This document shows, piece by piece, positions 2,150 through 59,335 of a DNA stretch of 64,000 nt. This DNA is from Bacillota bacterium (lineage in GTDB: Bacteria > Bacillota > Clostridia > Ch29). The DNA is taken from assembly GCA_013540605.1 (NCBI GenBank), contig JABVCK010000002.1, positions 32,339 through 96,338 of the forward strand. Reading direction: 5' to 3'. Below the pieces are notes generated by a model. The model saw only the letters and a program-made list of their open reading frames with translations, did no database searches and had not been told where the DNA came from. The position numbers and the translations under genes were made by a program. How positions within the stretch are numbered: the first letter of the stretch is position 1; the number at the start of each line of letters is the position of its first letter.

Positions 2150-2440
2150 TGTAGAAAACAGAAACTTCAGGCATCCACCTGAAGCTTCAGAGACTGCATA
2201 AAGTTATCCGGCTGACCTGGTCTTTTCCCCCACACTCGCCTGCTGCGGGTCTCGCTACGGTTTAAGCCTTCACTACTCCCCGTCTCCGGTTTAACCCCGG
2301 GCAGGACTTACCTCTAAACCGCACCATGCTCACCGGTATTTTTGCCGGTTTACGTGGGTCGTTTCGCCTGCGGCTGGCATCGACTTTCAACCACAGACCC
2401 GGAAAAACTTCATTATTCACATATACATTATAGCGTTTTT
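2150..2440 (-). ncRNA. Candidate structured ncRNA, proposed raiA-motif RNA
   Basis: GC-rich (about 60 percent) ~290-nt island inside an AT-rich intergenic region, no ORF, same strand and immediately upstream of hpf/raiA; ends in hairpin CTTCAGGTGGATGCCTGAAG plus U-run on minus strand (2149-2183). Confidence 0.45.
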
Positions 2441-5228: not shown

Positions 5229-5633
5229 TTAAATTTTCCTGTCTACCAAAATACCGGCCAATTCCCACATCTTTGCCACCATGTCAAGTATCTTTTCCGG
5301 TGGTATCTCCCTGATAACCTCATCGGTCTCATCGTTTATAACCTTCACCATTATCTCCTTGGTATCCTCGTGGATAGAAAACTCAAACCTTTTGTCCACA
5401 CCCCTCAGGGCTTTGTTTGCCCTTTCTATAGCCTCTATAAGCTCCTGCTCTCCTATGGATACCCCTTCAGCCTTCACCATCCCAGGATTTGCCCACCTGT
5501 CTTCCTTTGCGGCAGTGTTTTTTTCCGGATTTTTCACCTTTTCATTCTCTATCCTCTTTGCCTGTTCATCCACTGCCTTGACGCTGTCTATTTTCGCAAC
5601 AGGACGGATGTTTCCAACCCCTTCGACCCTCAT
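5229..5633 (-). CDS. flaG: Flagellar protein FlaG
   Basis: 134 aa, FlaG family (…FEFSIHEDTKEIMVKVINDETDEVIREIPPEKILDMVAKM…), RBS GGAGGTG upstream. Confidence 0.85.
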   Translation of the reverse strand: MRVEGVGNIRPVAKIDSVKAVDEQAKRIENEKVKNPEKNTAAKEDRWANPGMVKAEGVSIGEQELIEAIERANKALRGVDKRFEFSIHEDTKEIMVKVINDETDEVIREIPPEKILDMVAKMWELAGILVDRKI

Positions 5634-5645
5634 AACAACACCTCC

Positions 5646-6003
5646 ATAGTTCGTAGTTGGCAGTTTACAGATCGCAGTCGACAGATCGCAGGTGCTAGTT
5701 CACAGTTTTCAGACCACAGATATTAGTTCCCAGTTTACAGTTTTCAGTTGCTGGAGTAAACCTTACAGGTCTTTCCCCTTTAGCGCTGCCCTATGCTCTG
5801 GCAACTGACAACTAGCCACTGGTCACTGGTCACTGGTCACTGGTCACTGGTCACTGGTCACTGGCAACTACGTATAAGGAATGTCCCCAATATATTTCTA
5901 TCTTATTTATCGGTAAAAAACGTTAAAACTTTAGTTTTCAGATCGCAGGTGCTAGCTACTGATCACTGGTCACTGGCAACTACGTATAAGAATGTCCCCA
6001 ATT
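5646..6003. repeat. Heptad-periodic CAG/CACTGGT tract with two copies of a GGGGACA-containing 30-bp motif
   Basis: 7-bp periodicity (…ACAGATC GCAGTCG ACAGATC GCAGGTG…; six tandem CACTGGT); motif CTGGCAACTACGTATAAGGAATGTCCCCAAT at 5860-5890 and 5974-6003. Confidence 0.8.
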
Positions 6004-8040: not shown

Positions 8041-8060
8041 GATAATCCCCTTTCCTTTGT

Positions 8061-8140
8061 AGATCACAGTTCACAGATCACAGTTCACAGGTACTAGGTC
8101 CTGGATCCTAGGTGCTAGTCACTGGCCACTGACCACTGAT
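8061..8140. repeat. Heptad-periodic CAG/CTGG tract
   Basis: AGATCACAGTTCACAGATCACAGTTCACAGGTACTAGGTCCTGGATCCTAGGTGCTAGTCACTGGCCACTGACCACTG; followed by GGTGTGTCCCC. Confidence 0.75.
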
Positions 8141-8161
8141 AAGCGGTGTGTCCCCTTTCCA

Positions 8162-9635: not shown

Positions 9636-9680
9636 TCACTCCCTGTTCACTGGCCACTAGTCACTGACCACTGATATCTA
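9636..9680. repeat. Short heptad-periodic CACTGG tract
   Basis: TCACTCCCTGTTCACTGGCCACTAGTCACTGACCACTGATATC between flgK stop and flgL start. Confidence 0.6.
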
Positions 9681-16457: not shown

Positions 16458-16490
16458 CTCCCTTCAGAACATTGCGAACATTTCCGGATG

Positions 16491-16660
16491 CCAGATCACA
16501 GATTCTAGATCGCAGTTCGCAGATCGCAGATCGCAGGTGCTAGTTCACAGTTTTCAGATCACAGTTTACAGTTCACAGGTGCTAGGTCCTAGTTACTGAT
16601 CACTGGTAACTGAAAACCGGCAACTGGCCACTAGCCACTGGTCACTGGCAGCTGATCACT
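16491..16660. repeat. Heptad-periodic CAG/CACTGG inverted-repeat tract
   Basis: CCAGATCACAGATTCTAGATCGCAGTTCGCAGATCGCAGATCGCAGGTGCTAGTTCACAG… then …CACTGGTAACTG…CCACTGGTCACTGG; two halves are approximate reverse complements. Confidence 0.8.
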
Positions 16661-16883
16661 AGACATCCACCATTTCCACCTGGTTGATCCTGTCAATGGA
16701 TGCTGCCGGAAACTCCTGAAGGCTAATAAGCGCTACGGCTATATCGTACACATCCTGGTCAGCGGCGCCGGCCTTTATACCCGAATAGGTCCGGGTTGAA
16801 TACTTTGGGTTTCCCTGGTCATCCTGCCCTATCTCCAGCCTGATTCTCAGCCTGGAGTCTACGGGTTGAACCTGTAGAGCCAT
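16659..16883 (-). CDS. DUF1659 family small protein
   Basis: 74 aa; partner of DUF2922 as usually found in Bacilli/Clostridia. Confidence 0.7.
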   Translation of the reverse strand: MALQVQPVDSRLRIRLEIGQDDQGNPKYSTRTYSGIKAGAADQDVYDIAVALISLQEFPAASIDRINQVEMVDV

Positions 16884-16959: not shown

Positions 16960-17060
16960 CCTTAGCGGCATACATTATGCCGGTTAAACGGACACAAAAA
17001 ATAAAACGAGCGGTGTTAAGGCTCTCTTCTTCCAAAACACCGCCTGTTAAAAGCCGTTCC
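16960..17060 (+). repeat. Copy H1 of ~80-bp hairpin element derived from metK 3-prime end
   Basis: GCGGTGTTAAGGCTCTCTTCTTCCAAAACACCGCCTGTTAAAAGCCGTTCCCTTGCTATTTGCCGAAGGC ~85 percent identical to 32862-32945, which overlaps the true metK stop. Confidence 0.8.
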
Positions 17061-17164
17061 CTTGCTATTTGCCGAAGGCCTGGTTTTTTAGCAAGTCTTA
17101 TCTTAATTTCATCATTAGGTATAGCTAACCCAGTTCATCTATCCTGAGCAAAAACAGCTGAATA

Positions 17165-17483
17165 TATTAAATAACCACCATCCAAGTTTTTCACTCTGTA
17201 ACCGTTTAATTTTAAACACAAACAGAGGGATAAAACACAAACAGACAACACAAACAGAGGGACAGGTAAATAACCACCATCCAAGTTTTTCACTCTGTAA
17301 CCGTTTAATTTGAGCATTCTGGCAGCTATATATCCCCTGACACACAAACACAAACAGAGGGACATGAACACAAACAGAGGGACAGGTACTGTGTTTGACG
17401 GCCCTTGAGTACAGATAGGATACAAGTAGAAAACGAAGGAACATTATAAAGCATGATGGGATCAATAGGACCGTCCCCATGCT
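17165..17483 (+). repeat. Composite repeat R1: duplicated 44-bp unit, ACAAACAGRGGGACA minisatellite, and 112-bp block shared with 31193-31307
   Basis: AATAACCACCATCCAAGTTTTTCACTCTGTAACCGTTTAATTT at 17170 and 17268; CACAAACAGAGGGACA x5; block 17372-17483 matches 31193-31307 with 1-2 mismatches, bounded by GGGACAGG…CCGTCCCC. Confidence 0.85.
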
Positions 17484-31102: not shown

Positions 31103-31307
31103 CTATAGAATATAATTATTGATATCAAACAGGGGGACAAACAGGGGGACAGGACAAACACAGACAAACAGGGGGACAGGTACTGTGTTTGGACAAACAG
31201 GGGGACAGGTACTGTGTTTGACGGCCCTTGAGTACAGATAGGATACAAGTAGAAAACGAAGGAACGTTATAAAGCATGATGGGATCAATAGGACCGTCCC
31301 CATGCTT
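31103..31307 (+). repeat. Composite repeat R2: CAAACAGGGGGACA minisatellite plus 115-bp block shared with 17372-17483
   Basis: CAAACAGGGGGACAAACAGGGGGACAGGACAAACACAGACAAACAGGGGGACAGGTACTGTGTTTGGACAAACAGGGGGACAGGTACTGTGTTTGACGG…CCGTCCCC. Confidence 0.85.
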
Positions 31308-32848: not shown

Positions 32849-32861
32849 GTAATAGGAAGGA

Positions 32862-32945
32862 AAACTAACCAGGCGGTGTTAAGGCTCTATTCTGCCAAAA
32901 CACCGCCTGTTAAAAACCGTTTCCTTGCTATTCTCCGAAGGCTTG
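32862..32945 (+). repeat. Copy H2 of hairpin element, overlapping true metK stop
   Basis: GGCGGTGTTAAGGCTCTATTCTGCCAAAACACCGCCTGTTAAAAACCGTTTCCTTGCTATTCTCCGAAGGC; last 18 nt encode metK …AFGE*. Confidence 0.8.
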
Positions 32946-34118
32946 CTTCCTCAGTGTCTCCACCTTGTCCAGCCTCTCCCACGGAAGGTCAAGGTCGTTC
33001 CTGCCGAAATGCCCGTAAGCTGCGACCTTTTTATAGATTGGCTTCCTCAAATCAAGATCCCTTATTATCGCCGCCGGACGCAGGTCGAAATTAGCGTTGA
33101 TCAGTTTGATTATTTCCTCCTCCGGGATTTTTGACGTACCGAAGGTGTCCACCATTACGGATACGGGTCTTGCCACTCCGATGGCATACGCCACCTGCAC
33201 TTCGCATTTGTCGGCAATACCGGCAGCCACTATGTTCTTCGCAACATACCTGGCTGCATAGGAGGCGGAACGGTCCACCTTGGTCGGGTCTTTACCGGAA
33301 AAGGCACCGCCGCCATGACGGGCGTAGCCCCCGTAGGTATCCACTATTATTTTCCTTCCCGTAAGCCCCGAATCTCCCTGGGGCCCGCCTACCACAAACC
33401 TGCCGGTCGGGTTTATATAATATTTGGTATTCCCGTCGAGCAGCTCCGCAGGAATCACTTCCTTTATAACCTTTTCGATGATGTCTTTCCTTATGGTTTC
33501 CTGGTCCACATCGGGATGATGCTGAGTTGAGACCACCACAGTATCCACCCTCAGAGGCTTATCCCCATCATACTCCACCGTAACCTGGGACTTTCCATCG
33601 GGCCTGAGATATGGAATGATGTCCTTCTTCCTGACTTCCGCGAGCCTTCTCGTAAGACCGTGGGCCAGATAAATCGGCAGCGGCATGAATACGTCGGTAT
33701 CATTGCAGGCAAAACCGAACATCATACCCTGGTCTCCCGCTCCGATAGCCTCCACCTGGCTGTCCATGTCCCCCTGTTTTGCTTCAAGGGCTTTATCAAC
33801 GCCCATTGCTATATCCGGCGATTGCTCGTCAATGGAAGTAATGACGGCACAGGTATCACAGTCAAAACCGTATTTGGCCCTCGTATAGCCTATCTCTTCG
33901 ACTGTTTGTCTTACTATCTTGGGAATATCCACATAACATTTTGTTGTAATCTCGCCCATTACCAGCACAAGCCCTGTGGTCACCGATGTCTCACAGGCAA
34001 CCCTGGCATCCGGGTCCTCTTTAAGAATCGCGTCCAGCACCGCGTCAGAAATCTGGTCGCAGATTTTATCCGGATGACCCTCTGTTACCGATTCCGATGT
34101 AAATAGTTTCCTTGCCAT
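32928..34118 (-). CDS. metK: S-adenosylmethionine synthetase
   Basis: Start at [25 protein letters not shown]; hallmark motifs GGGAFSGKD, …DTYGG…. Confidence 0.95.
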
Positions 34119-34157
34119 TCTATTAAACCCCTCCTTTAAGGTATGGGGACACACCTC

Positions 34158-34253
34158 GTGCTAGTTCGTAGTTGGTAGTTCGTAGCTCGCAGGTGCTAGG
34201 TACTAGGTCCTAGGTGCTGGTCACTGACAACTGGCAACTATAATGTCCCCAAT
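34158..34253. repeat. Heptad-periodic TAG/CTGG tract plus GGGGACA motif inside the metK leader
   Basis: CTAGTTCGTAGTTGGTAGTTCGTAGCTCGCAGGTGCTAGGTACTAGGTCCTAGGTGCTGGTCACTGACAACTGGCAACTATAATGTCCCCAAT, located between the riboswitch terminator and the metK start codon. Confidence 0.75.
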
Positions 34254-34304: not shown

Positions 34305-34465
34305 GCGAAACAGCAAAAAACCCCTTTCTGCAGGAAAGGAGGCAGCTTCACCACCTTATCTTACAGAATTATCAATTCTGTGGGAATTGGCACCGCTGCG
34401 CAAACTCGCCGGTTGCCGGGTTTCATAGGGCCCTTCTCCCTCCACCTCTCTTGATAAGGATTGTA
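34305..34465 (-). promoter_or_regulatory. SAM-I (S-box) riboswitch with intrinsic terminator, leader of metK
   Basis: Minus-strand sequence CTTATCAAGAGAGGTGGAGGGA…GGGCCCTATGAAACCCGGCAACC…GGTGCCAATTCC…AGATAAG matches S-box consensus; followed by hairpin CCTTTCCTGCAGAAAGG GG and U-run. Confidence 0.9.
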
Positions 34466-35115: not shown

Positions 35116-35200
35116 TGGTGGAGGGAGCTGGATTTGAACCAGCGAAGGCTGAGCCAACAGATTTACAGTCTGCCCCCTTTGGCCACTTGGGTATCCCTCC
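35116..35200 (-). tRNA. tRNA-Tyr (GTA)
   Basis: GGAGGGATACCCAAGTGGCCAAAGGGGCAGACTGTAAATCTG…long variable arm…GGTTCAAATCCAGCTCCCTCCACCA; encoded CCA. Confidence 0.85.
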
Positions 35201-35316
35201 ATAATGGTGCCGGCGATGTTATAAACCGCATAGATAATATAACATTTGCCCCGCACTCCTGTCAACACATATATTCAGAAAATTTACTGCCAGTATGACC
35301 ATATTTTTATACAGGC

Positions 35317-36042
35317 CTATTTAAAGATTCTGCCAAGCTCCGCGGATAGCCCTTCAAAAATGTAAGATTGCACGACTTCGGATTTTCTGTAAGTGGTATA
35401 ACCGCTGATGTTCTTGTCTTCAAAAAGGTAAACGGTAACTTCCCTGTTTATGGGGTTCACAATCCAGTATTCCCTGACATCGCACGACATGTAAAGATCA
35501 AGCTTTTTTATCAGATCCTTGCTCCGCGTACCCTCGGATAATATTTCCACCACAAGCGCCGGGACACCCTTGTAATAGTCGTTTTCATCCAGCTTTTCCT
35601 CGAGGTCGCATATGACCATGATATCAGGCTGAACAACATTTATATCCTCCGGGTCTCTCCTGAGCGTGATATCATAGGGAGCAACCATGGGAGTGCACTT
35701 TTTCCCCTGAAACCAGTTGTAAAAAATACCAAAGAGTTCGGTCAAAGCTACCTGGTGCGCGGTTTTAGGCGAGGCCAGCAGGTATATTTCACCGTCAATG
35801 TATTCGTATCTTTCCTCGGAATTTTTGGTCAGTTCCAGAAATTCCTCATAGGATGCCCTTCTGCCGCCCAAACCGTATTCTTGCGCCTTTTCCATCACCC
35901 TACCCTGGCCTGACGCCGCATCTCTTATGGCTGTCAATCTTGCTATTTCCATACCGTTTCTTGTAATTATAATATCTTCATACGCCGCAAGCACGAGGTA
36001 CTTTCCGAAGTTGTTCTGCAGTTCCGTTGAGTTGACTTTCAT
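35317..36042 (-). CDS. Uma2-family (DUF820) putative endonuclease with N-terminal Phd/YefM-like extension
   Basis: 241 aa; C-terminal Uma2 motifs (…PDIMVICDLE…VPALVVEILSEGTRSKDLIKKLDLY…); N-terminal MKVNSTELQNNFGKYLVLAAYEDIIITRNGMEIARL resembles antitoxin fold. Confidence 0.6.
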   Translation of the reverse strand: MKVNSTELQNNFGKYLVLAAYEDIIITRNGMEIARLTAIRDAASGQGRVMEKAQEYGLGGRRASYEEFLELTKNSEERYEYIDGEIYLLASPKTAHQVALTELFGIFYNWFQGKKCTPMVAPYDITLRRDPEDINVVQPDIMVICDLEEKLDENDYYKGVPALVVEILSEGTRSKDLIKKLDLYMSCDVREYWIVNPINREVTVYLFEDKNISGYTTYRKSEVVQSYIFEGLSAELGRIFK

Positions 36043-36166
36043 AAACAGAACCTCCTTTAGCTATTATAGCTATATTAGCTATAATAATTATATGCCGCGG
36101 AAAAGGCGGTGTCAAGAAGCAGTCGATAAAAAATACGACAGGGGAAGTTCTCTCCTGTCGCATTTA

Positions 36167-36242
36167 TGGAGCTGGTGATGGGAGTCGAACCCGCAACCTG
36201 CTGATTACAAATCAGCTGCTCTGCCAATTGAGCTACACCAGC
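36167..36242 (-). tRNA. tRNA-Thr (TGT)
   Basis: GCTGGTGTAGCTCAATTGGCAGAGCAGCTGATTTGTAATCAGCAGGTTGCGGGTTCGACTCCCATCACCAGCTCCA. Confidence 0.85.
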
Positions 36243-36245
36243 ATA

Positions 36246-36321
36246 TGGTGGGCACAACTGGGCTCGAACCAGTGACCCCCTGCGTGTGGAGCAGGTGCTC
36301 TCCCAGCTGAGCTATGCGCCC
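36246..36321 (-). tRNA. tRNA-Val (CAC), with unusual C at position 33
   Basis: GGGCGCATAGCTCAGCTGGGAGAGCACCTGCTCCACACGCAGGGGGTCACTGGTTCGAGCCCAGTTGTGCCCACCA; cloverleaf folds, anticodon loop TCCACAC. Confidence 0.65.
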
Positions 36322-36329
36322 AATAATAA

Positions 36330-36404
36330 TGGTGACCCCTAGGGGACTCGAACCCCTGTTACCGCCGTGAAAGGGCGGTGTCTTAACCGCTTGACCAAGG
36401 GGCC
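36330..36404 (-). tRNA. tRNA-Glu (TTC)
   Basis: GGCCCCTTGGTCAAGCGGTTAAGACACCGCCCTTTCACGGCGGTAACAGGGGTTCGAGTCCCCTAGGGGTCACCA. Confidence 0.85.
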
Positions 36405-36410
36405 AGATTA

Positions 36411-36487
36411 TGGTCGGGGCGAAGGGATTTGAACCCCCGACCCCATGGTCCCAAACCATGTGCGCTACCAAACTGCGCTACGCCCCG
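36411..36487 (-). tRNA. tRNA-Pro (TGG)
   Basis: CGGGGCGTAGCGCAGTTTGGTAGCGCACATGGTTTGGGACCATGGGGTCGGGGGTTCAAATCCCTTCGCCCCGACCA. Confidence 0.85.
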
Positions 36488-36702
36488 ACTTCTCTAGCGT
36501 CACTTTTATATTATACATAATGGGTTTTGCGTTTTCAATAGTAATTTTTGTTTTTCTACCATAGTATTTCAGGTCAAGCACCCTGAACATGTAACAATAA
36601 TGTAACACCGCTGTAACTATATATACGCCTTTTTTATGTATAATTGTTTTGTACAGAAACTTAAACGCAATTTTTCCGTCCAATAATGTAAGAGGACACA
36701 CC

Positions 36703-36850
36703 ATCTATCAGTTATCGGTTGCCAGTTGTCAGACATCATAGATCAGATGCCAGAGATCAGTTCCCGGTTGTCAGTTTCTAGTACCTGCGAACTGCGATCT
36801 GCGGCCTATGATCTGTAAGCTACGAACTGCCAACTACGAACTTCACTTTG
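36703..36850. repeat. Heptad-periodic CAG/CTG inverted tract
   Basis: CAGTTATCGGTTGCCAGTTGTCAGACATCATAGATCAGATGCCAGAGATCAG… then CCTGCGAACTGCGATCTGCGGCCTATGATCTGTAAGCTACGAACTGCCAACTACGAAC. Confidence 0.8.
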
Positions 36851-36862
36851 GGAGGGAAAGTT

Positions 36863-39685
36863 TTGAAAAAAATCGTATCAGTATTGACAGCATTTATTCT
36901 ATGCATTTCGATTTTTCCTATTCAGGCCTTTGCCGGCTTACAGGAAAGCGGAATAATACACCGGGAAATCCACCAAACACAGATTGCCCAAAATGTTACA
37001 TATAAAAATATCGTTCAGTTCACCAATAATGGATGGCAAAACATCCATATAATAGAGGCCGATATTTCAGGAAAATACACCGGCCTTAAGGTTCTGACGC
37101 CGCAGGAGGGCATTGGAAACGGTTCCACATTGATGGATATGGTACATGATAAGGAAATTATTGCAGCTATTAACGGAGATTTCTTTATTTCGGGACAGAT
37201 TTACTCTCCGATAGGTCCGGTTGTTGAGAACGGGGAAATGCAAAGCAGCCCAACCTACCGGATGGATGAGCTTTCGGTTTTTTCCCTTGATGAAAATAAT
37301 GTGCCTATGCTTGATTACTGGAGCTGGGACATTAAGCTAAGGGTTAACGGCAGCGGATTTCCTATATCTGCCATTAACAAAACCAGCTTCGACTATCTCT
37401 ACCCTGTTATTTATACCAAGGACTGGGGTGTCAAGCCTCCTTCCGTTACATTCCCGGATATTCTGTACTTTGTTATTGAAAGGGACACGGTAAGGGAAGT
37501 ACTGGCCGGCCCGCAGGAAGGGATGGAGATACCCGCTGATGGAATGGTGCTGATGGTTAGGGGCGAAAGGGCGGCAGAGATTCAGCAGTACCTCGTACCC
37601 GGCTCTTCCGTCGGCCTGGAAATCATCAGCCGGCCCGATTACTCCAGGCTTAATCTTGCTATAGGCGGAGGGAGCATACTGGTTAAGGACGGGAGTATTT
37701 ACCCCTTTACCCATAGAATCGACGGTTATCATCCGAGAACAGCCCTTGGGTTTTCAAAGGACGGCAGAAAAATGTTCGCCGTCACTGTTGATGGCAGAAC
37801 CCAATCCTCTGCAGGTATGACCCAGGAGCAGCTGGCGCAGTTCATGATTGAAATCGGAGCCTACAATGCGCTTAACCTGGACGGCGGAGGGTCTTCCACA
37901 ATGCTGGCGCGTAAGCTGGGAGAAGAAGACCTTTCCCTTGTGAACACCCCGTCGGACGGGTCCATGCGGCGGATTTCAAACGGCCTTGGCATTGAGAGCA
38001 CTGCCCCCCGCGGGCCTCTAAAATATATATTCCTTGAGACCGCCGACAGCAATGTCTTTGCGGGTACAGGCCGTACCATAAACGTCAAGGGTTATGACAG
38101 CAATTATAACCCTGTCAGTATAGATGAGAGAAAAGTAGATTTTGAAGTTTCCGGGGTGTCGGGCGGCTTCTCGGGCAGCGTATTTTACCCGGAAACAGCG
38201 GGAAACGCCACTGTCACGGCGAAATATATGGGAAAGACGGCAAGCATAAGTCTTAAAGTTCTTGATGCTCCGGCCGAGCTCATCCTTCCCTATGAGGAAA
38301 TAAAAACAGACACGTTAAAATCTCTTAGTTTTCCGATCTATGGCAGGAGCCTGTCCGGTTTTAAAGCATTGATGGAAAACAGGGATGTACTGCTTATCAG
38401 CACAATGGGAAGGTTTGAGGGTCAGACCTTCAACAGCGGCAGTACCGAAGGCACCGGTAAGATTATGGTAGCGTACGGCCAGCTTTCTTACGAAATACCG
38501 CTGTCTGTGGGATACAAACGCACTGTTGTGGATAACTTCGAGATGCCAAACGGCAGCTTCACTTCCTATCCTGCATCGGTTCAGGGACATTATGCGCTGG
38601 ATACGGCAAATTCCACAAGCGGGCGCTCCAGCGGACGGCTTGCCTATGATTTTACCGGAGAAAGTGCTACCGCTGCGTCCTACCTGGTATTCAACGGAGA
38701 CGGCATAAGGCTTGACACCGTTCCGCAAAGGATTGGGGTGAAAGTTTACAACTCAAAGGAGAACAATCACTGGATACGGATGCTTGTTGAGGATGCCAAC
38801 GGCAAGAGCGCAACCTTGGATCTGGCCCGGAAGCTGGATTGGAAAGGCTTCAAGTTCATCGATGCGGCCGTTCCAAAGGACCTAACGCCGCCTGTATATA
38901 TAAAAAGGCTGTATGTGGTGGAGACCAACCCGATAATGCATGACAGCGGCACGGTGCTGTTTGATGACCTTACTGCAATGTACTCCTTCGCTCCCCAGGG
39001 TCCCATTGCCGAACCCAAAGGCGAAAGGATTTATGACCCTTCAAGGACCGAAACAGCACCGGCGGAGTGGAAATTCTCGTTTTCACTCTTCGGAAGCACA
39101 ACTATTGACAAACTCCTCGATATTCACCTGGTCAGCAGGATGAAAGCCCTTGCCGCGGAGGCCGGTGACCTTTCAGTATTCGCAGGAAGCATCGGTGAGG
39201 ACAGCCTGTCCGGGCTTAAAGTCCCGACTCTGGCAACACAGCCGGGGTACGCAGAAGCCAAATATGGGGATATAACATTCCTCAAGCTGGATAATTCCAC
39301 GGGAGGCCTCAGGTCTTATTCACCACAGCAGTGGTACTGGCTTAAGGAAAGGCTGCAGCAGGTATACAGGGGCAGCTTGTTCCTGGTCCTGCCGAAGCCG
39401 GTCTGGGATAAAGGTGGATTTACCGATATCAAGGAAGCGGAACTGCTCCAGCAGTACCTTTCCGAACTGGTATCGGACAAAGATATCAACGTCTATGTTT
39501 TGTACGGCCAGGCATCCGGAGTGGAATACGATGTGAGGGACGGTGTGAAATACATCGGGATAAGCGGCACCGGACAGCTGGACAAGAATTACTCGATTTT
39601 TGATGATTTCAACTACCTGAAATTCTATATAGACGAACAGGGCGGTATAAAATACCAGGTACTCCCGCTTTACAGAAAGCCGTAG
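36863..39685 (+). CDS. Large secreted phosphodiester glycosidase-family (DUF2233/NAGPA-like) protein with Ig-like domains
   Basis: Start TTG after GGGAGGG RBS; signal peptide LKKIVSVLTAFILCISIFPIQAFA; …ALNLDGGGSSTM… motif of phosphodiester glycosidase family. Confidence 0.75.
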   Translation: MKKIVSVLTAFILCISIFPIQAFAGLQESGIIHREIHQTQIAQNVTYKNIVQFTNNGWQNIHIIEADISGKYTGLKVLTPQEGIGNGSTLMDMVHDKEIIAAINGDFFISGQIYSPIGPVVENGEMQSSPTYRMDELSVFSLDENNVPMLDYWSWDIKLRVNGSGFPISAINKTSFDYLYPVIYTKDWGVKPPSVTFPDILYFVIERDTVREVLAGPQEGMEIPADGMVLMVRGERAAEIQQYLVPGSSVGLEIISRPDYSRLNLAIGGGSILVKDGSIYPFTHRIDGYHPRTALGFSKDGRKMFAVTVDGRTQSSAGMTQEQLAQFMIEIGAYNALNLDGGGSSTMLARKLGEEDLSLVNTPSDGSMRRISNGLGIESTAPRGPLKYIFLETADSNVFAGTGRTINVKGYDSNYNPVSIDERKVDFEVSGVSGGFSGSVFYPETAGNATVTAKYMGKTASISLKVLDAPAELILPYEEIKTDTLKSLSFPIYGRSLSGFKALMENRDVLLISTMGRFEGQTFNSGSTEGTGKIMVAYGQLSYEIPLSVGYKRTVVDNFEMPNGSFTSYPASVQGHYALDTANSTSGRSSGRLAYDFTGESATAASYLVFNGDGIRLDTVPQRIGVKVYNSKENNHWIRMLVEDANGKSATLDLARKLDWKGFKFIDAAVPKDLTPPVYIKRLYVVETNPIMHDSGTVLFDDLTAMYSFAPQGPIAEPKGERIYDPSRTETAPAEWKFSFSLFGSTTIDKLLDIHLVSRMKALAAEAGDLSVFAGSIGEDSLSGLKVPTLATQPGYAEAKYGDITFLKLDNSTGGLRSYSPQQWYWLKERLQQVYRGSLFLVLPKPVWDKGGFTDIKEAELLQQYLSELVSDKDINVYVLYGQASGVEYDVRDGVKYIGISGTGQLDKNYSIFDDFNYLKFYIDEQGGIKYQVLPLYRKP

Positions 39686-40326: not shown

Positions 40327-40384
40327 CCTTCGACTTCAACTTCAGTTTATTATAAACCCCTTGAAACCGTTTTTATACCAACCA

Positions 40385-40630
40385 GCATTCAGTTGCCAGT
40401 TATCATATGACAGATGACAGACGTCAGTCGGCAATTGGCAGTTGGCAGTTGGCAGACATCAGCGAAGTCCTAGGAAAAGAAAAGCCCAGAAAACTTCACC
40501 CTTGCACCTGCGATCTGCCCACTGCGATCTGCGGTCTATGATCTGGTACCTGTGAACTGTGAACTGTAAACTACGAACTACCAACTACGAACTACGGACT
40601 ACGAACCAACTCTGTAATCTGCGAACAAGA
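40385..40630. repeat. Heptad-periodic CAG/CTG inverted tract (two blocks)
   Basis: CAGTTGCCAGTTATCATATGACAGATGACAGACGTCAGTCGGCAATTGGCAGTTGGCAGTTGGCAGACATCAG … CACCTGCGATCTGCCCACTGCGATCTGCGGTCTATGATCTGGTACCTGTGAACTGTGAACTGTAAACTACGAACTACCAACTACGAACTACGGACTACGAAC. Confidence 0.8.
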
Positions 40631-40653
40631 AACTGTATCGAGGGTGATCAGCT

Positions 40654-40839
40654 GTGGATAAAAGGATTGAGAAACTAAAAGTGGAAATAGAAAATTGCAG
40701 GAGAAAGCTTCAGGAAGAGTTGGACAAGCAGGACTTCCAGGCTTCCTATGATATTATTCTGAATACAAGCCGGGAGTTGGACAGGCTTATAGTTGAGTAT
40801 GAGCAGCTAACAAAAATAGACCGTTACCGGTCTATTTAG
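40654..40839 (+). CDS. Spo0E-family sporulation regulatory protein (aspartyl-phosphate phosphatase-like)
   Basis: 61 aa, GTG start; …[15 protein letters not shown]…[15 protein letters not shown]… Spo0E-like pattern. Confidence 0.6.
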
Positions 40840-45242: not shown

Positions 45243-47309
45243 ATGGCAACAGCTAATGACAAAAACTGCAGAGCGAGGAAGGTAAGCACATCCTGTACCC
45301 TTGACTGCTGGGATGCCTGCTCTATTATTGCAGACGTGGACGGTAACAGAATTGTGTCTATAGCCGGCAATCCAGACAATCATGTAACAGGAGTTTTTTT
45401 GTGCTCAAAGGGCAAGAAACACATAGAAATGCTCAACAGCCCCGAACGGCTGCGCAAGCCTATGTATAGAACCGCGGAGGGATGGACGGATATTGACTGG
45501 GATATGGCCCTTGATTTGGTCGCAGACAAGCTGCAAGCCCTGCGCTCCCGGTACCCTACCACAGCCCTGCTGCACTGTTATGACTGCGGAAACGGAGGGC
45601 TGCTCAAGGGTATCGACAGGAGGTTCTTCAATGCCTTCGGAGGTGCCACCGTACCGAAGGGGAGCCTCTGCTGGGGAGCCGGTATCGCCGCACAGAAATA
45701 TGACTTCGGCGATTCCCTGAGCCACGACCCGGATGATCTGCAAAATTCAAGGACCATCCTTATCTGGAGCAGAAACCCCGCTGATACCGGCGTACACCTT
45801 ATACCGTTTATTCAAAAAGCTGCGAAAAACGGCGCATACATTGTGGTTATAGACCCGCTGGAGACTGCCACCGTCAAATACGCACACCAACATATATCAC
45901 CAAAACCCGGTACCGATGGGGCTCTGGCTTTGGCAATGGCAAACGTAATCATCTCGGAAAACCTTGCGGATGATGCATACGTAGCAAAACACGTCATCGG
46001 ATTTGACAGGTTCAGCGAATATGTGAAGGAATTCACCCCCGGTATGGCTTCCGGGATTACGGGCATACCGGCTGAGGCGATAGTGTCCCTGGCGAGAAGA
46101 TACGGGACGCAAAAACCCTCATGCATACTGCTGGGTTACGGTCTTCAGAGATACAGCAACGGCGGAAACACCGTCCGCGCCATCGATGCCCTGGGCGCAA
46201 TCACGGGGAACATAGGCATTCCCGGAGGCGGAGTGAACTATGCCAATAAAAGGATCGGAAAGTATATAGATGACAGCGTCATAGATGGTGAAAGCCTGAG
46301 AAAGAATTTCAGGGAATACCCCCGCCCGCGCATGGCAAGTTTTATTGAAAACGCCGGTGACCCGCCGGTAAAAATGGTTTTCACGGCAAGGGCAAACCCG
46401 GCTACCCAGGCCATGGACAGCAACCGCCTGGCAAAGGCCTTTTCAAAGGTGGACTTCAAGGTAACAATGGACCTTTTTATGACCGATACCGCCCGCCTAT
46501 CCGACCTGGTGCTGCCGTGCAGGCATTTCCTTGAAGATGAGGATATCATCTATACCTCCATGGGACACAGCTACATAAACTACTGCAACAGAGTTGTAGA
46601 ACCCGACCCGTGGGTTCCCTCGGAGCTGTGGATATTCAACGAATTAGCCGGCAGGCTCGATCTGGAGGGGTTTCCCATACAGGATGAAAGGTGGTGGCTG
46701 GAAAGGGCCATACTTCCCCTTACCCGGCAAAAGGGTATAACCCTTGATGACCTGAAAAACGGGCCGGTACAGCTGCCCGGTATCTCTCCGGTAGCGTGGG
46801 ACAGCTTCGAATTTAAAACACCAAGCGGCAAAATAGAGCTTTACTCCGAAAGGGCCCTGGCAGACGGACATAGTCCCATACCGGTATTTAGGAATATAAA
46901 CCCAAAGCCCACCGGCAGATACCCTTATCATTTTCTGACGCCGCACCACAGGGATTCGCTCCACTCACAGCATTTTGTGCTGGCGGATGGCGGGGCGAGG
47001 CCGGTTGCTTACATAAACCCCGCCATGGCAACGGCTGAGGGTATTGAAGACGGCTCAAAGGCCCTTGTCTCCACCGAAGCGGGGAACCTGCTCTGCAGGG
47101 TGAAGGTAGACAAAAACATTAGGGAAGGCATTGTAATGGTATACGAAGGCTGGTGGATACAAAAATCCGGAGGAGTGAACCAGCTGATACCGGAACGGGA
47201 AACCGACATGGGCACCCAGGCAGCCTATAACGACTGCATGTGCAATATATCAAGGGGACTATATCAAGGGGACGGTTCTCTTGATATATATCAGCGTAAC
47301 TGCCAGTGA
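45243..47309 (+). CDS. Molybdopterin (bis-MGD) oxidoreductase family protein
   Basis: 688 aa; N-terminal Cys cluster CTLDCWDACS…C (4Fe-4S Mo/W-bisMGD type), molybdopterin oxidoreductase and C-terminal MopB-barrel regions. Confidence 0.8.
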   Translation: MATANDKNCRARKVSTSCTLDCWDACSIIADVDGNRIVSIAGNPDNHVTGVFLCSKGKKHIEMLNSPERLRKPMYRTAEGWTDIDWDMALDLVADKLQALRSRYPTTALLHCYDCGNGGLLKGIDRRFFNAFGGATVPKGSLCWGAGIAAQKYDFGDSLSHDPDDLQNSRTILIWSRNPADTGVHLIPFIQKAAKNGAYIVVIDPLETATVKYAHQHISPKPGTDGALALAMANVIISENLADDAYVAKHVIGFDRFSEYVKEFTPGMASGITGIPAEAIVSLARRYGTQKPSCILLGYGLQRYSNGGNTVRAIDALGAITGNIGIPGGGVNYANKRIGKYIDDSVIDGESLRKNFREYPRPRMASFIENAGDPPVKMVFTARANPATQAMDSNRLAKAFSKVDFKVTMDLFMTDTARLSDLVLPCRHFLEDEDIIYTSMGHSYINYCNRVVEPDPWVPSELWIFNELAGRLDLEGFPIQDERWWLERAILPLTRQKGITLDDLKNGPVQLPGISPVAWDSFEFKTPSGKIELYSERALADGHSPIPVFRNINPKPTGRYPYHFLTPHHRDSLHSQHFVLADGGARPVAYINPAMATAEGIEDGSKALVSTEAGNLLCRVKVDKNIREGIVMVYEGWWIQKSGGVNQLIPERETDMGTQAAYNDCMCNISRGLYQGDGSLDIYQRNCQ

Positions 47310-47325
47310 CTAGAGTGGGCTACAA

Positions 47326-56741: not shown

Positions 56742-57029
<288 letters not shown>

Positions 57030-57033
57030 TTAA

Positions 57034-58539
<1,506 letters not shown>

Positions 58540-59199: not shown

Positions 59200-59335
59200 A
59201 TATGGGACAATGGGACAATGGGGACGGTTCTCTTTGTCCCACTATTATGTTAACCAAGTGGGACAAGGCACCTGTCCCCGTGTCCCGCCGCCCCCCGCCC
59301 GTGTCCCGCCCCTGTCCCGCCCACCAAAAATCAAA
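59200..59335. repeat. GGGACA/TGTCCC-rich repeat region upstream of histidine kinase gene
   Basis: ATGGGACAATGGGACAATGGGGACGG…TGTCCCAC…GTGGGACAAGGCACCTGTCCCCGTGTCCCGCCGCCCCCCGCCCGTGTCCCGCCCCTGTCCCGCCC; contains inverted repeat GGGACAAGGCACCTGTCCC. Confidence 0.75.

Follow-up and report, generated by a model that had tools for sequence, protein, structure and literature searches.

Polar heptanucleotide-repeat tracts in gene leaders of an uncultured member of the Clostridia, a candidate foldback repeat element

A 64,000-nt stretch (hereafter the window) of an uncultured Clostridia-class metagenome-assembled genome (MAG; GCA_013540605.1, contig JABVCK010000002.1) carries eight intergenic tracts built of phased 7-nt units, designated here elements A, A2, and B through G (Table 1). 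The tracts are related to one another, lie in leaders or between cistrons with a bias toward the sense orientation, and differ between close relatives both in the sites occupied and in the number of units per site. On balance, they would seem to be copies of a lineage-restricted, non-coding foldback element resembling repetitive extragenic palindromes (REPs) and miniature inverted-repeat transposable elements (MITEs), which would be a passive passenger of mRNA leaders and change in length by slippage. This reading is favored because of the insertion polymorphism, the ends and modules shared between copies at non-homologous loci, and the copy-number slippage described below. It was one of three offered in an initial annotation of the window, beside a binding array for a DNA-bending protein and a cruciform-forming regulatory structure, and the evidence prefers it to the other two. 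The data for this lineage consist of 64 kb of genome plus fragments.

Tracts were detected in the window as chains of at least four (C/T)AG or CT(A/G) trinucleotides at 7-nt spacing, with one skipped unit tolerated. Such chains are confined to eight places in the 64 kb: the seven sites listed in the initial annotation, and a separate mini-copy (A2, 5932-5999). By chance, 0.2 (C/T)AG runs and 0.45 CT(A/G) runs are expected (averages of 20 mononucleotide shuffles). Each of the listed sites is also called by Tandem Repeats Finder, as an array of period 7 or 14, in agreement with the phased-chain scan and with the strict 7-bp register first described. The stretch 5646-6003, previously taken as a single site, is indeed made of heptads but holds two elements, A (5646-5888) and A2, with a promoter-like site between them. 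Phased arms have 4-15 (C/T)AG heptads and then 5-14 CT(A/G) heptads, and the unit total per site ranges from 5 to about 27. An independent MAG from NCBI has the same tracts, as does a Logan assembly; they are therefore no assembly artefact. The elements gave no Rfam matches at gathering thresholds; elsewhere in the window only the raiA motif, a SAM riboswitch, and tRNAs did. A phage origin was rejected, a viral contig collection having yielded no match to the family pattern.

The similarity among sites goes beyond low complexity, as the initial annotation had proposed: identical blocks are shared by A and D (32 nt), A and A2 (about 40 nt), E and G (24 nt), and F and G (24 nt). Its example of a reverse-complement pair holds as well, with TAGTTCGTAGTTGGTAGTTCGTAG placed at 34162 in element E and CTACGAACTACCAACTACGAACTA at 40571 in element G. 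Nor are the copies restricted to the window (see below), and the periodicity is kept as more of them are aligned.

When written in the sense of the flanking gene, seven of the eight copies have a single 7-nt register and a fixed order of unit types: R-Y-CAG-T-K units such as ACCAGTG and GCCAGTT lead, one to four CTAG units (CCTAGGA, ACTAGCA) come next, and H-CT-R-Y-G-A units (e.g., CCTGCGA, ACTGTGA, ACTACGA) close the series. Downstream of the arrays are 10-32 nt holding an ordinary Shine-Dalgarno sequence and the start codon. In this reading a pyrimidine precedes YAG, and a pyrimidine also follows CTR. The 3′-arm units have 5-6 of 7 positions constrained, with A at position 7 in 62 of 68. The elements span 40-245 nt each and occupy 1.6% of the window, but contain 19 of its 32 CTAG tetranucleotides. 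The 5′ and 3′ arms are complementary just at the CAG/CTG core; the element therefore has polarity, and most copies are poor hairpins. The long imperfect palindrome seen in the initial annotation thus survives as a loose match of CAG/CTG cores, with outer arms of different unit types. Some copies also have recognizable ends: GGGGACA lies 5-10 nt ahead of the array in A, A2, B, and E, with AGGACAC in this position in F, and TGTCCCC forms the 3′ end of E. A role for GGGGACA as a transcription start signal was ruled out, since in E it lies 3′ of the riboswitch terminator.

Folding energies of 11 copies were calculated for both strands and compared with 100 dinucleotide shuffles each. They are between 0 and about 3 standard deviations better than the shuffles (sense z +0.7 to -3.2), and the antisense strand folds with equal or greater stability in nine of the 11, the difference in minimum free energy (MFE) being nil in three. 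With sense scores this weak and antisense folds as good or better, a selected RNA hairpin formed by the outer arms finds no support; likewise, the cruciform proposal fares poorly, as most copies fold no better than shuffled sequence. The only part with a regular predicted fold is the inner core of the long forms, where 5-bp CAGUU/AACUG helices would stack with 2×2 internal loops between them, under an apex of CAUAGGG...CCCUAG (in four sequences, too few for covariation).

All eight sites are in non-coding spacers between predicted genes. Seven copies are directly upstream of a start codon, at the 10-32 nt given above, while A2 is upstream of the flaG promoter instead. The downstream genes are unrelated: flaG, fliW, flgL, and genes for DUF2922, MetK, a NAGPA-domain protein (adjoined by a tRNA cluster), and a Spo0E-like protein. 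This agrees with the placement in promoter or leader regions, and with the flanking genes, reported initially: every copy is in leader or intercistronic DNA. The elements sit inside transcription units. A promoter-like site is found directly upstream of A, which would therefore lie in the 5′ untranslated region (UTR); the same stretch (5889-5917) has a SigD-like match, TAAAG-N15-CCGATAAA, read by eye from the sequence. E follows a SAM-I riboswitch and its terminator, and therefore forms part of the metK leader transcript. Both C and D occupy spacers between cistrons, and the first unit of D supplies the TAG stop codon of DUF1659.

Every one of the eight copies is sense to the genes beside it: the minus strand has six of them and the plus strand two. 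GC skew, local gene effects apart, is negative throughout the window, including where the orientation of the elements switches; orientation therefore follows the gene and is not set by replication, an explanation that was ruled out on this ground, with just two plus-strand copies behind the inference. In related metagenome loci, copies are sense in L045, L063, L155, L037, the second L081 array, and two L163 arrays, and antisense in L067 (between nadD-like and HD genes) and in the L163 flgL-DUF6470 array; one L081 copy adjoins the 3′ end of a convergent gene. The family-wide tally is about 15 sense to two or three antisense, with gene calls in the metagenome loci made partly by open reading frame (ORF) heuristics. 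A C/A-rich sense strand was considered as a cause of the bias and dropped: sense-strand composition is balanced. Runs of four or more A on this strand number 7, and of four or more T, 1, with A-runs lying where the antisense strand has T-runs.

The sequence TGTGGATAA, just past element G at 40653-40661, overlaps the start of the Spo0E-like ORF. It is a perfect DnaA-box 9-mer, probably by coincidence.

Turnover was followed in relatives ranked by MetK identity and sharing the gene order metK ... DUF1659-DUF2922 ... flgK-flgL-DUF6470-fliW-csrA-flagellin; the nearest named genus by this measure is Caldicoprobacter, at 82-83%. In a conspecific MAG (MetK ~100%), site A has three ACCAGTG units fewer, the sole difference across 440 nt, and site E is identical. 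In L163 (MetK 92%), four of the five comparable window sites are empty: at site B, DUF6470 and fliW overlap, with no array; at D, the DUF1659-DUF2922 spacer is 28 nt and array-free; at E, the metK leader passes from the riboswitch terminator directly to the ribosome-binding site (leaders without the element are also found in L165 and L166); and at G, the spacer is 97 nt and array-free. Only site C is common to L163 and the window, and there two L163 units are flipped from CAGTG to CACTG. Conversely, the mreB-flgF and flgL-DUF6470 spacers, both of which are empty in the window, contain arrays in L163. Neither L165 (MetK 87%) nor L166 (83%) has any array across 12 kb of syntenic DNA. Such gain and loss of sites between relatives is the behavior of mobile or fast-expanding repeat DNA rather than of a conserved control element.

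Two assembly ends fall near elements: Logan contig L002 begins inside the flaG element, and Logan contig L168 begins 36 nt upstream of metK, with no element sequence visible there. The elements may break short-read assemblies, given that the contigs of these two relatives stop just upstream of genes that bear an element in the window.

Further members of this family occur on several contigs of metagenome Ga0067045, and on other contigs, among the matches listed. Four long forms (window A, L155, L081, and L045) share a conserved, foldable core of about 130 nt, and the genes flanking them differ, being flaG for A, a glycosyltransferase gene for L155, and a YetF gene for L045. The 3′ end GTGTGTCCCCATACCTTAAAG is common to window E and L155, and its reverse complement is found in L045 within a 60-nt tandem module. 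This module of about 60 nt (GGGGACATTCCGCGGCAAGGAATAC..GCGTAGCAGCGGTGTGTCCCCATACC) is present in tandem beside heptad elements at L045 1-120 and L155 960-1045; it has GGGGACA/TGTCCCC ends with no heptads inside, and may be an "empty" form of the element.

If the tracts are a REP/MITE-like element, new copies would arise by insertion, through either a trans-acting enzyme or recombination between copies, and slipped-strand mispairing would then lengthen and shorten the arrays. A direct unit could become an inverted one through a single G/C flip in its quasi-palindromic CASTG core. Each copy would be co-transcribed in a 5′ UTR or intercistronic RNA, and tolerated there because the promoter and ribosome-binding site remain intact. 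The sense bias could reflect selection against the opposite orientation, which would be disfavored because it would give the leader U-tracts, along with hairpins of equal or greater stability. Any effects on expression would be side effects on mRNA folding, stability, or translation, rather than conserved control of particular genes.

As to what might move such an element, the sole candidate with any hint is a RayT-like HUH Y1 transposase, and this is a lead rather than a finding. The inverted repeats flanking RAYT-like (TIRYT) Y1 transposase genes have the motif GGGGWSAS (PMC3733652), which the end motif GGGGACAC fits. L168, a 94% relative, has a 261-aa Y1_Tnp gene immediately after metK, coding for a member of a protein family that is common across Firmicutes and annotated as RayT. 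The RayT-like genes of L168, L170, and L171 are flanked by hairpins with GGGACGGTTCT loops, not by heptad arrays. Since this motif flanks RayT-like genes in three Firmicute loci, the window can be said to hold two solo REP-like copies, one of them directly followed by heptad-like units (Table 1). In the 20-kb surroundings of two RayT-like genes from other Firmicutes there are no comparable composite arrays, L170 having one four-unit CTR run at chance level.

The elements can be compared with canonical MITEs and REPs trait by trait. Presence/absence polymorphism is clear, with four window sites empty in L163, two L163 sites empty in the window, and one in common. GGGGACA/TGTCCCC terminal repeats bound E and L155, and CGTAGTTGSCAGT ends are found at A, but one or both ends are missing in B, C, D, and G. 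REP units are short palindromes tagged with GTAG (or CGTC) at one end; here the tetranucleotide GTAG is present in the two outermost units, CGTAGTTG and CAACTACG, which are complementary at 12 of 13 nt at site A, though the body between them is a heptad array and not a single hairpin.

Several points weigh against a REP/MITE-like origin. A phmmer comparison with RayT of E. coli and Y1_Tnp of L168 as queries gave no Y1 homologue for the window or the fetched loci (about 1 Mb), and neither a transposase flanked by the elements nor an autonomous partner came to light in the same DNA. Alignments of filled and empty sites E, D, B, and G show no clear target-site duplication, the only hint being GGAAAGGGGA flanking B. 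Similarity between copies is a mosaic of 24-40 nt blocks, without whole-element identity, and in-situ expansion combined with gene conversion could yield much of the same pattern. A functional leader element would likewise show sense bias and proximity to ribosome-binding sites, and the rationale for the bias depends on small differences, given the three nil MFE differences and the balanced sense composition. Copy number and orientation genome-wide are extrapolated from 64 kb plus fragments.

A second possibility, unlikely but the strongest of the alternatives, is that the arrays act as RNA: the sense CAG-N4 and then CUR-N4 units would be multivalent sites for an RNA-binding protein or the ribosome, setting translation or stability across a dispersed regulon. 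HutP, which recognizes XAG triplets, and TRAP, which recognizes (G/U)AG triplets, are precedents. In earlier work, HutP is said to have bound NAG triplets with 4-nt spacers, the spacing found here. The HutP surface binds three XAG motifs (PMC2425495), and the forward heptamers directly upstream of start codons in Beggiatoaceae have been proposed to act in translational control (MacGregor, 2015; PMC4679880). The copies in question are indeed within transcripts and end 10-32 nt ahead of start codons, their sense bias tracks the gene strand and not replication, and the sense strand of A through E contains no ATG. Turnover is harder to accommodate: four of five comparable sites are empty at 92% MetK identity and all are empty at 87% and 83%, so that no gene retains its element, and the number of units, from 5 to about 27 per site, differs even between conspecific genomes. 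Moreover, the flanked genes are functionally unrelated, L067 and the L163 flgL-DUF6470 spacer have antisense copies, and no candidate binding protein was identified. A role as RNA would thus explain the position and polarity of the elements, but not their gain and loss. In any case, the known HutP site, a terminator flanked by two sets of three XAG motifs and adjacent to hutP and the hut genes (PMC2425495), is not matched: arrays here have up to 15 NAG units, with no terminator between the arms, and their neighbors are flagellar, metK, and sporulation genes.

Arrays of similar architecture are not confined to this lineage. Of 41 loci from a representative genome collection that lacks the source genome, 24 are from Acidobacteriota and the rest from Gemmatimonadota, Chloroflexota, Proteobacteria, and others, with arms of TCAGGT and ACCTGA units, and in metagenomes more than 119 contigs, a lower bound, spanning 34-71% GC have CGTAGTT/AACTACG arrays. 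With the window family excluded, the YAG-then-CTR order is more frequent than the reverse, at 14 to 5 in the genomes and 26 to 2 among the matches listed from the metagenome scan (40 to 7 in total), in loci that were selected by pattern and so form a biased sample. In the high-GC loci, arrays fill intergenic spacers of every gene arrangement, and none of 27 composite arrays is inside a coding-like ORF. The window family might accordingly be imagined as the local form of cross-phylum "heptad foldbacks" (NN-YAG-NN, then NN-CTR-NN, the order that prevails in Acidobacteriota, Gemmatimonadota, Chloroflexota, Proteobacteria, Bacillota, and many metagenome contigs), produced by a single common molecular process and co-opted here as sense leader modules tuning translation or mRNA stability of many genes. 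This is a speculative scheme, and a rather improbable one. The common arm order would point to one process, for instance the action of an HUH/RayT-type enzyme on single-stranded hairpins, or that of a conserved factor that binds nucleic acid.

Recognition as double-stranded DNA seems less probable again. Here the direct and inverted heptads would be cooperative sites for a small helix-wrapping protein like the ribbon-helix-helix omega/ParB protein of plasmid pSM19035, serving as a roadblock, a silencer, or a nucleoid-organizing site. The omega heptad consensus is reportedly WATCACW, and units of B and D come close to that form. These two elements read GATCACA GTTCACA GATCGCA on the plus strand, and 3′-arm units in general have 5-6 of 7 positions constrained. 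At least four contiguous 7-bp repeats, in both orientations, make up the parS/operator architecture of pSM19035 (PMC9499535), a genuine precedent for the DNA-binding array of the initial annotation. However, this idea fits the positions poorly, because the copies are inside transcription units and follow gene orientation: the sites are found past promoters or in spacers between cistrons, rather than over the promoters themselves. The units are heterogeneous, with an ATCAC-like core in a minority of arrays and GATCACA/GTTCACA only in B and D; unit constraint is also expected of young slippage products; sites turn over quickly; and no ribbon-helix-helix gene was identified in the window, which was only partly searched for one.

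Equally improbable is pure in-situ expansion, with each array grown by polymerase slippage from a chance seed, without movement or function: the unit-number difference between conspecific genomes, the mosaic similarity between copies, and the reported abundance of heptanucleotides, the most abundant long simple-sequence repeat class in many bacteria and ascribed to slippage (PMC4679880, PMC4692102), would all fit, but independent seeds are an unlikely source of the same unit order at seven of eight sites, and they leave unexplained both the shared GGGGACA.../...TGTCCCCATACCTTAAAG ends and the same 130-nt non-repetitive core at non-homologous loci of different genomes.

The initial annotation was aware of no described family with this structure. 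In fact, intergenic heptanucleotide arrays of unknown function have been published from Calothrix/Nostoc, Xanthomonas, Beggiatoaceae (TAACTGA), and Geobacter (MTYCTGA), some of them inverted and some directly before start codons (PMC4679880, PMC4692102, PMC2700814). The long simple-sequence repeat/short tandemly repeated repetitive (LSSR/STRR) class, to which the Calothrix/Nostoc, Xanthomonas/Nostoc GGGAATC-type, and Geobacter MTYCTGA repeats belong, resembles the window family in its intergenic tandem 7-nt units, its variation in unit number between relatives, and its occasional foldable inverted pairs. Heptad arrays in excess of chance, confinement to non-coding DNA, and unit-number variation between relatives are all found here, as in that class. 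It differs in that the window family is from Clostridia and has mixed units in a fixed order, end motifs, a non-repeat core in the long form, and an orientation tied to genes. Calothrix units are said to include CCCCAGT and CAACAGT, which contain CAGT, and cyanobacterial STRR units reportedly also include TTGGTCA, in heterocystous hosts. The cyanobacterial STRRs in the strict sense are not matched, the units here being R-Y-CAG-T-K plus H-CT-R-Y-G-A and the host a member of the Clostridia.

The Beggiatoaceae TAACTGA repeats are also heptamers found just upstream of start codons, mainly in the forward direction, before unrelated genes. They share the AACTG core of the 3′-arm units described here, and TAACTGA itself occurs once or twice in L155 and L081. 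They consist, however, of 2-6 copies of an exact unit (169 direct sets, and 1 indirect) that overlap the position where a ribosome-binding site is expected, whereas the present arrays are degenerate and composite, have up to about 27 units, and are followed by a normal Shine-Dalgarno sequence. REPs, the bacterial interspersed mosaic elements (BIMEs) they form, and terminal inverted repeats (TIRs) associated with RAYT and TIRYT genes (Di Nocera, 2013; PMC3733652) are similarly abundant, small, transcribed, and extragenic, often in inverted pairs, and differ between related genomes; the GTAG-containing outer units (CGTAGTTG...CAACTACG) may be a further likeness to REP/BIME. A REP, though, consists of one hairpin of 20-40 bp and in most cases lies downstream of a gene or between convergent genes, and the elements here are heptad arrays, mostly upstream of genes. 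Pneumococcal BOX and the Correia (nemis) elements of Neisseria are modular, non-autonomous intergenic elements with variable sub-units, which are co-transcribed, fold as RNA, and have local effects on expression. The present elements are distinguished from these by a 7-nt sub-unit, a mostly weak fold, and the lack of a visible target duplication or promoter/IHF modules. Finally, omega/ParB and HutP/TRAP are proteins that read arrays with a 7-nt period, as contiguous 7-bp DNA repeats and as RNA XAG triplets respectively (PMC9499535, PMC2425495), but they do so at a few dedicated sites beside their cognate genes, in contrast to the many dispersed and fast-changing sites described here.

Nothing relevant came from literature searches, whether for Firmicute heptamer repeats or for the repeat strings themselves. 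Nor was a heptad element that is composite, ordered, and polar found described from the leaders of Firmicutes, in coverage with few subscription journals, which makes the absence weak evidence. To our knowledge, the reason for a period of seven and the role of heptanucleotide repeats are still unexplained after more than 30 years; the fixed unit order, defined ends, gene-tied polarity, gain and loss in syntenic genomes, and recurrence of one arm order across phyla are new handles on the question. Should the elements alter how mRNAs fold or are translated, they would provide for fast change in expression, one gene at a time, here in genes of the flagellum, sporulation, and the methionine cycle. 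As purely selfish DNA they would still be a practical nuisance, breaking short-read assemblies and being open to misreading as regulatory motifs.

Table 1. Heptad elements, their phased runs, and associated features. Positions are those of the window unless a locus is named.
Feature	Positions	Strand	Remarks
Element A (long form), flaG leader	5646-5888	-	12 nt before flaG ATG at 5633
A: GGGGACA, in gene's sense	5888-5882
A: ~11 ACCAGTG-type units, in gene's sense	5870-5791
A: conserved non-heptad core	5795-5771		around CATAGGG..GGGGAAAG
A: AACTG/CTGCGAT/CTACGAA-type units	5747-5646
Promoter-like site	5889-5917	-	TTTACC-17-TATATT, directly 5′ of A; consensus match only
Element A2, truncated mini-copy	5932-5999	-	GGGGACA, CGTAGTTGCCAGTG, 3 units, CTAGCACCTGCGATCTG; between flagellin terminator (6031-6011) and flaG promoter-like site
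Element B, DUF6470-fliW spacer	8058-8155	-	14 nt before fliW ATG at 8043
Element C, short array	9640-9680	-	5 CAGTG-type units; fills flgK-flgL intercistronic spacer
Element D	16490-16663	-	Fills DUF1659-DUF2922 intercistronic spacer; 32 nt before DUF2922 ATG
Element E, metK leader	34145-34250	-	3′ of SAM-riboswitch terminator, 5′ of metK ribosome-binding site
E: GGGGACA bound	34250-34244
E: TGTCCCC bound	34151-34145
SAM-I riboswitch aptamer	34353-34460	-	90.8 bits (gathering score 44.4); terminator 34341-34321
Element F, upstream of 940-aa NAGPA-domain protein	36696-36842	+	22 nt before TTG start at 36863
Element G, divergent spacer	40381-40625	+	Upstream of Spo0E-like gene (40654-40839)
(C/T)AG run	5647-5747	+ (scan)	15 units
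(C/T)AG run	5932-5955	+ (scan)	4 units
(C/T)AG run	8060-8118	+ (scan)	8 units
(C/T)AG run	16492-16592	+ (scan)	15 units
(C/T)AG run	34162-34213	+ (scan)	8 units
(C/T)AG run	36709-36781	+ (scan)	8 units
(C/T)AG run	40383-40462	+ (scan)	10 units
CT(A/G) run	5791-5870	+ (scan)	12 units
CT(A/G) run	5952-5982	+ (scan)	5 units
CT(A/G) run	8094-8138	+ (scan)	7 units
CT(A/G) run	9643-9680	+ (scan)	6 units
CT(A/G) run	16582-16661	+ (scan)	11 units
CT(A/G) run	34196-34240	+ (scan)	7 units
CT(A/G) run	36778-36836	+ (scan)	9 units
CT(A/G) run	40508-40601	+ (scan)	14 units
GGGACGGTTCT hairpins, window	47246-47290; 59202-59245		Variable stems
GGGACGGTTCT hairpins, L168	1290-1320; 2165-2195		Variable stems
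GGGACGGTTCT hairpins, L170	9925-9950; 11495-11560		Variable stems
GGGACGGTTCT hairpins, L171	9940-9960; 10790-10815		Variable stems
Possibly related end	47246-47315	+	GGGACGGTTCT-loop hairpin, directly followed by units ATCAGCG TAACTGC CAGTGAC

Some other features of the window may be mentioned. In L163, L165, and L166, metK is directly followed by DUF1659-DUF2922, and in the window a block of about 15.9 kb separates the two. This block has 88-nt direct repeats at its limits (16998-17085 and 32861-32948, 85% identical) and a 114-nt repeat near each end (17370-17483 and 31193-31306, 98% identical), and looks like an integrated island or mobile element. Another repeat family, ACAAACAG(A/G)GGGACAGGTACTGTGTTTG, tandem and dispersed, is found near both ends of the block (17214-17396 and 31126-31220). 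An 11-nt C-rich tandem repeat, CCCGTGTCCCG, is present in about four copies at 59277-59322, adjoining a GGGACGGTTCT hairpin. The raiA RNA motif (2203-2407, minus strand, 183.8 bits) lies upstream of a ribosome hibernation factor gene of the Ribosomal_S30AE family (1244-1768). Beside five tRNA genes (35119-36487), a minus-strand gene (35317-36042) codes for a 241-aa protein with a Uma2 putative restriction endonuclease domain, whose N-terminus has a weak, sub-threshold match to Phd/YefM-like antitoxins (27.4 bits, with a cutoff of 29.8). Lastly, four internal repeats of about 250-290 nt with 62-76% identity, at 56754-57783, are apparently repeated domains of one gene.

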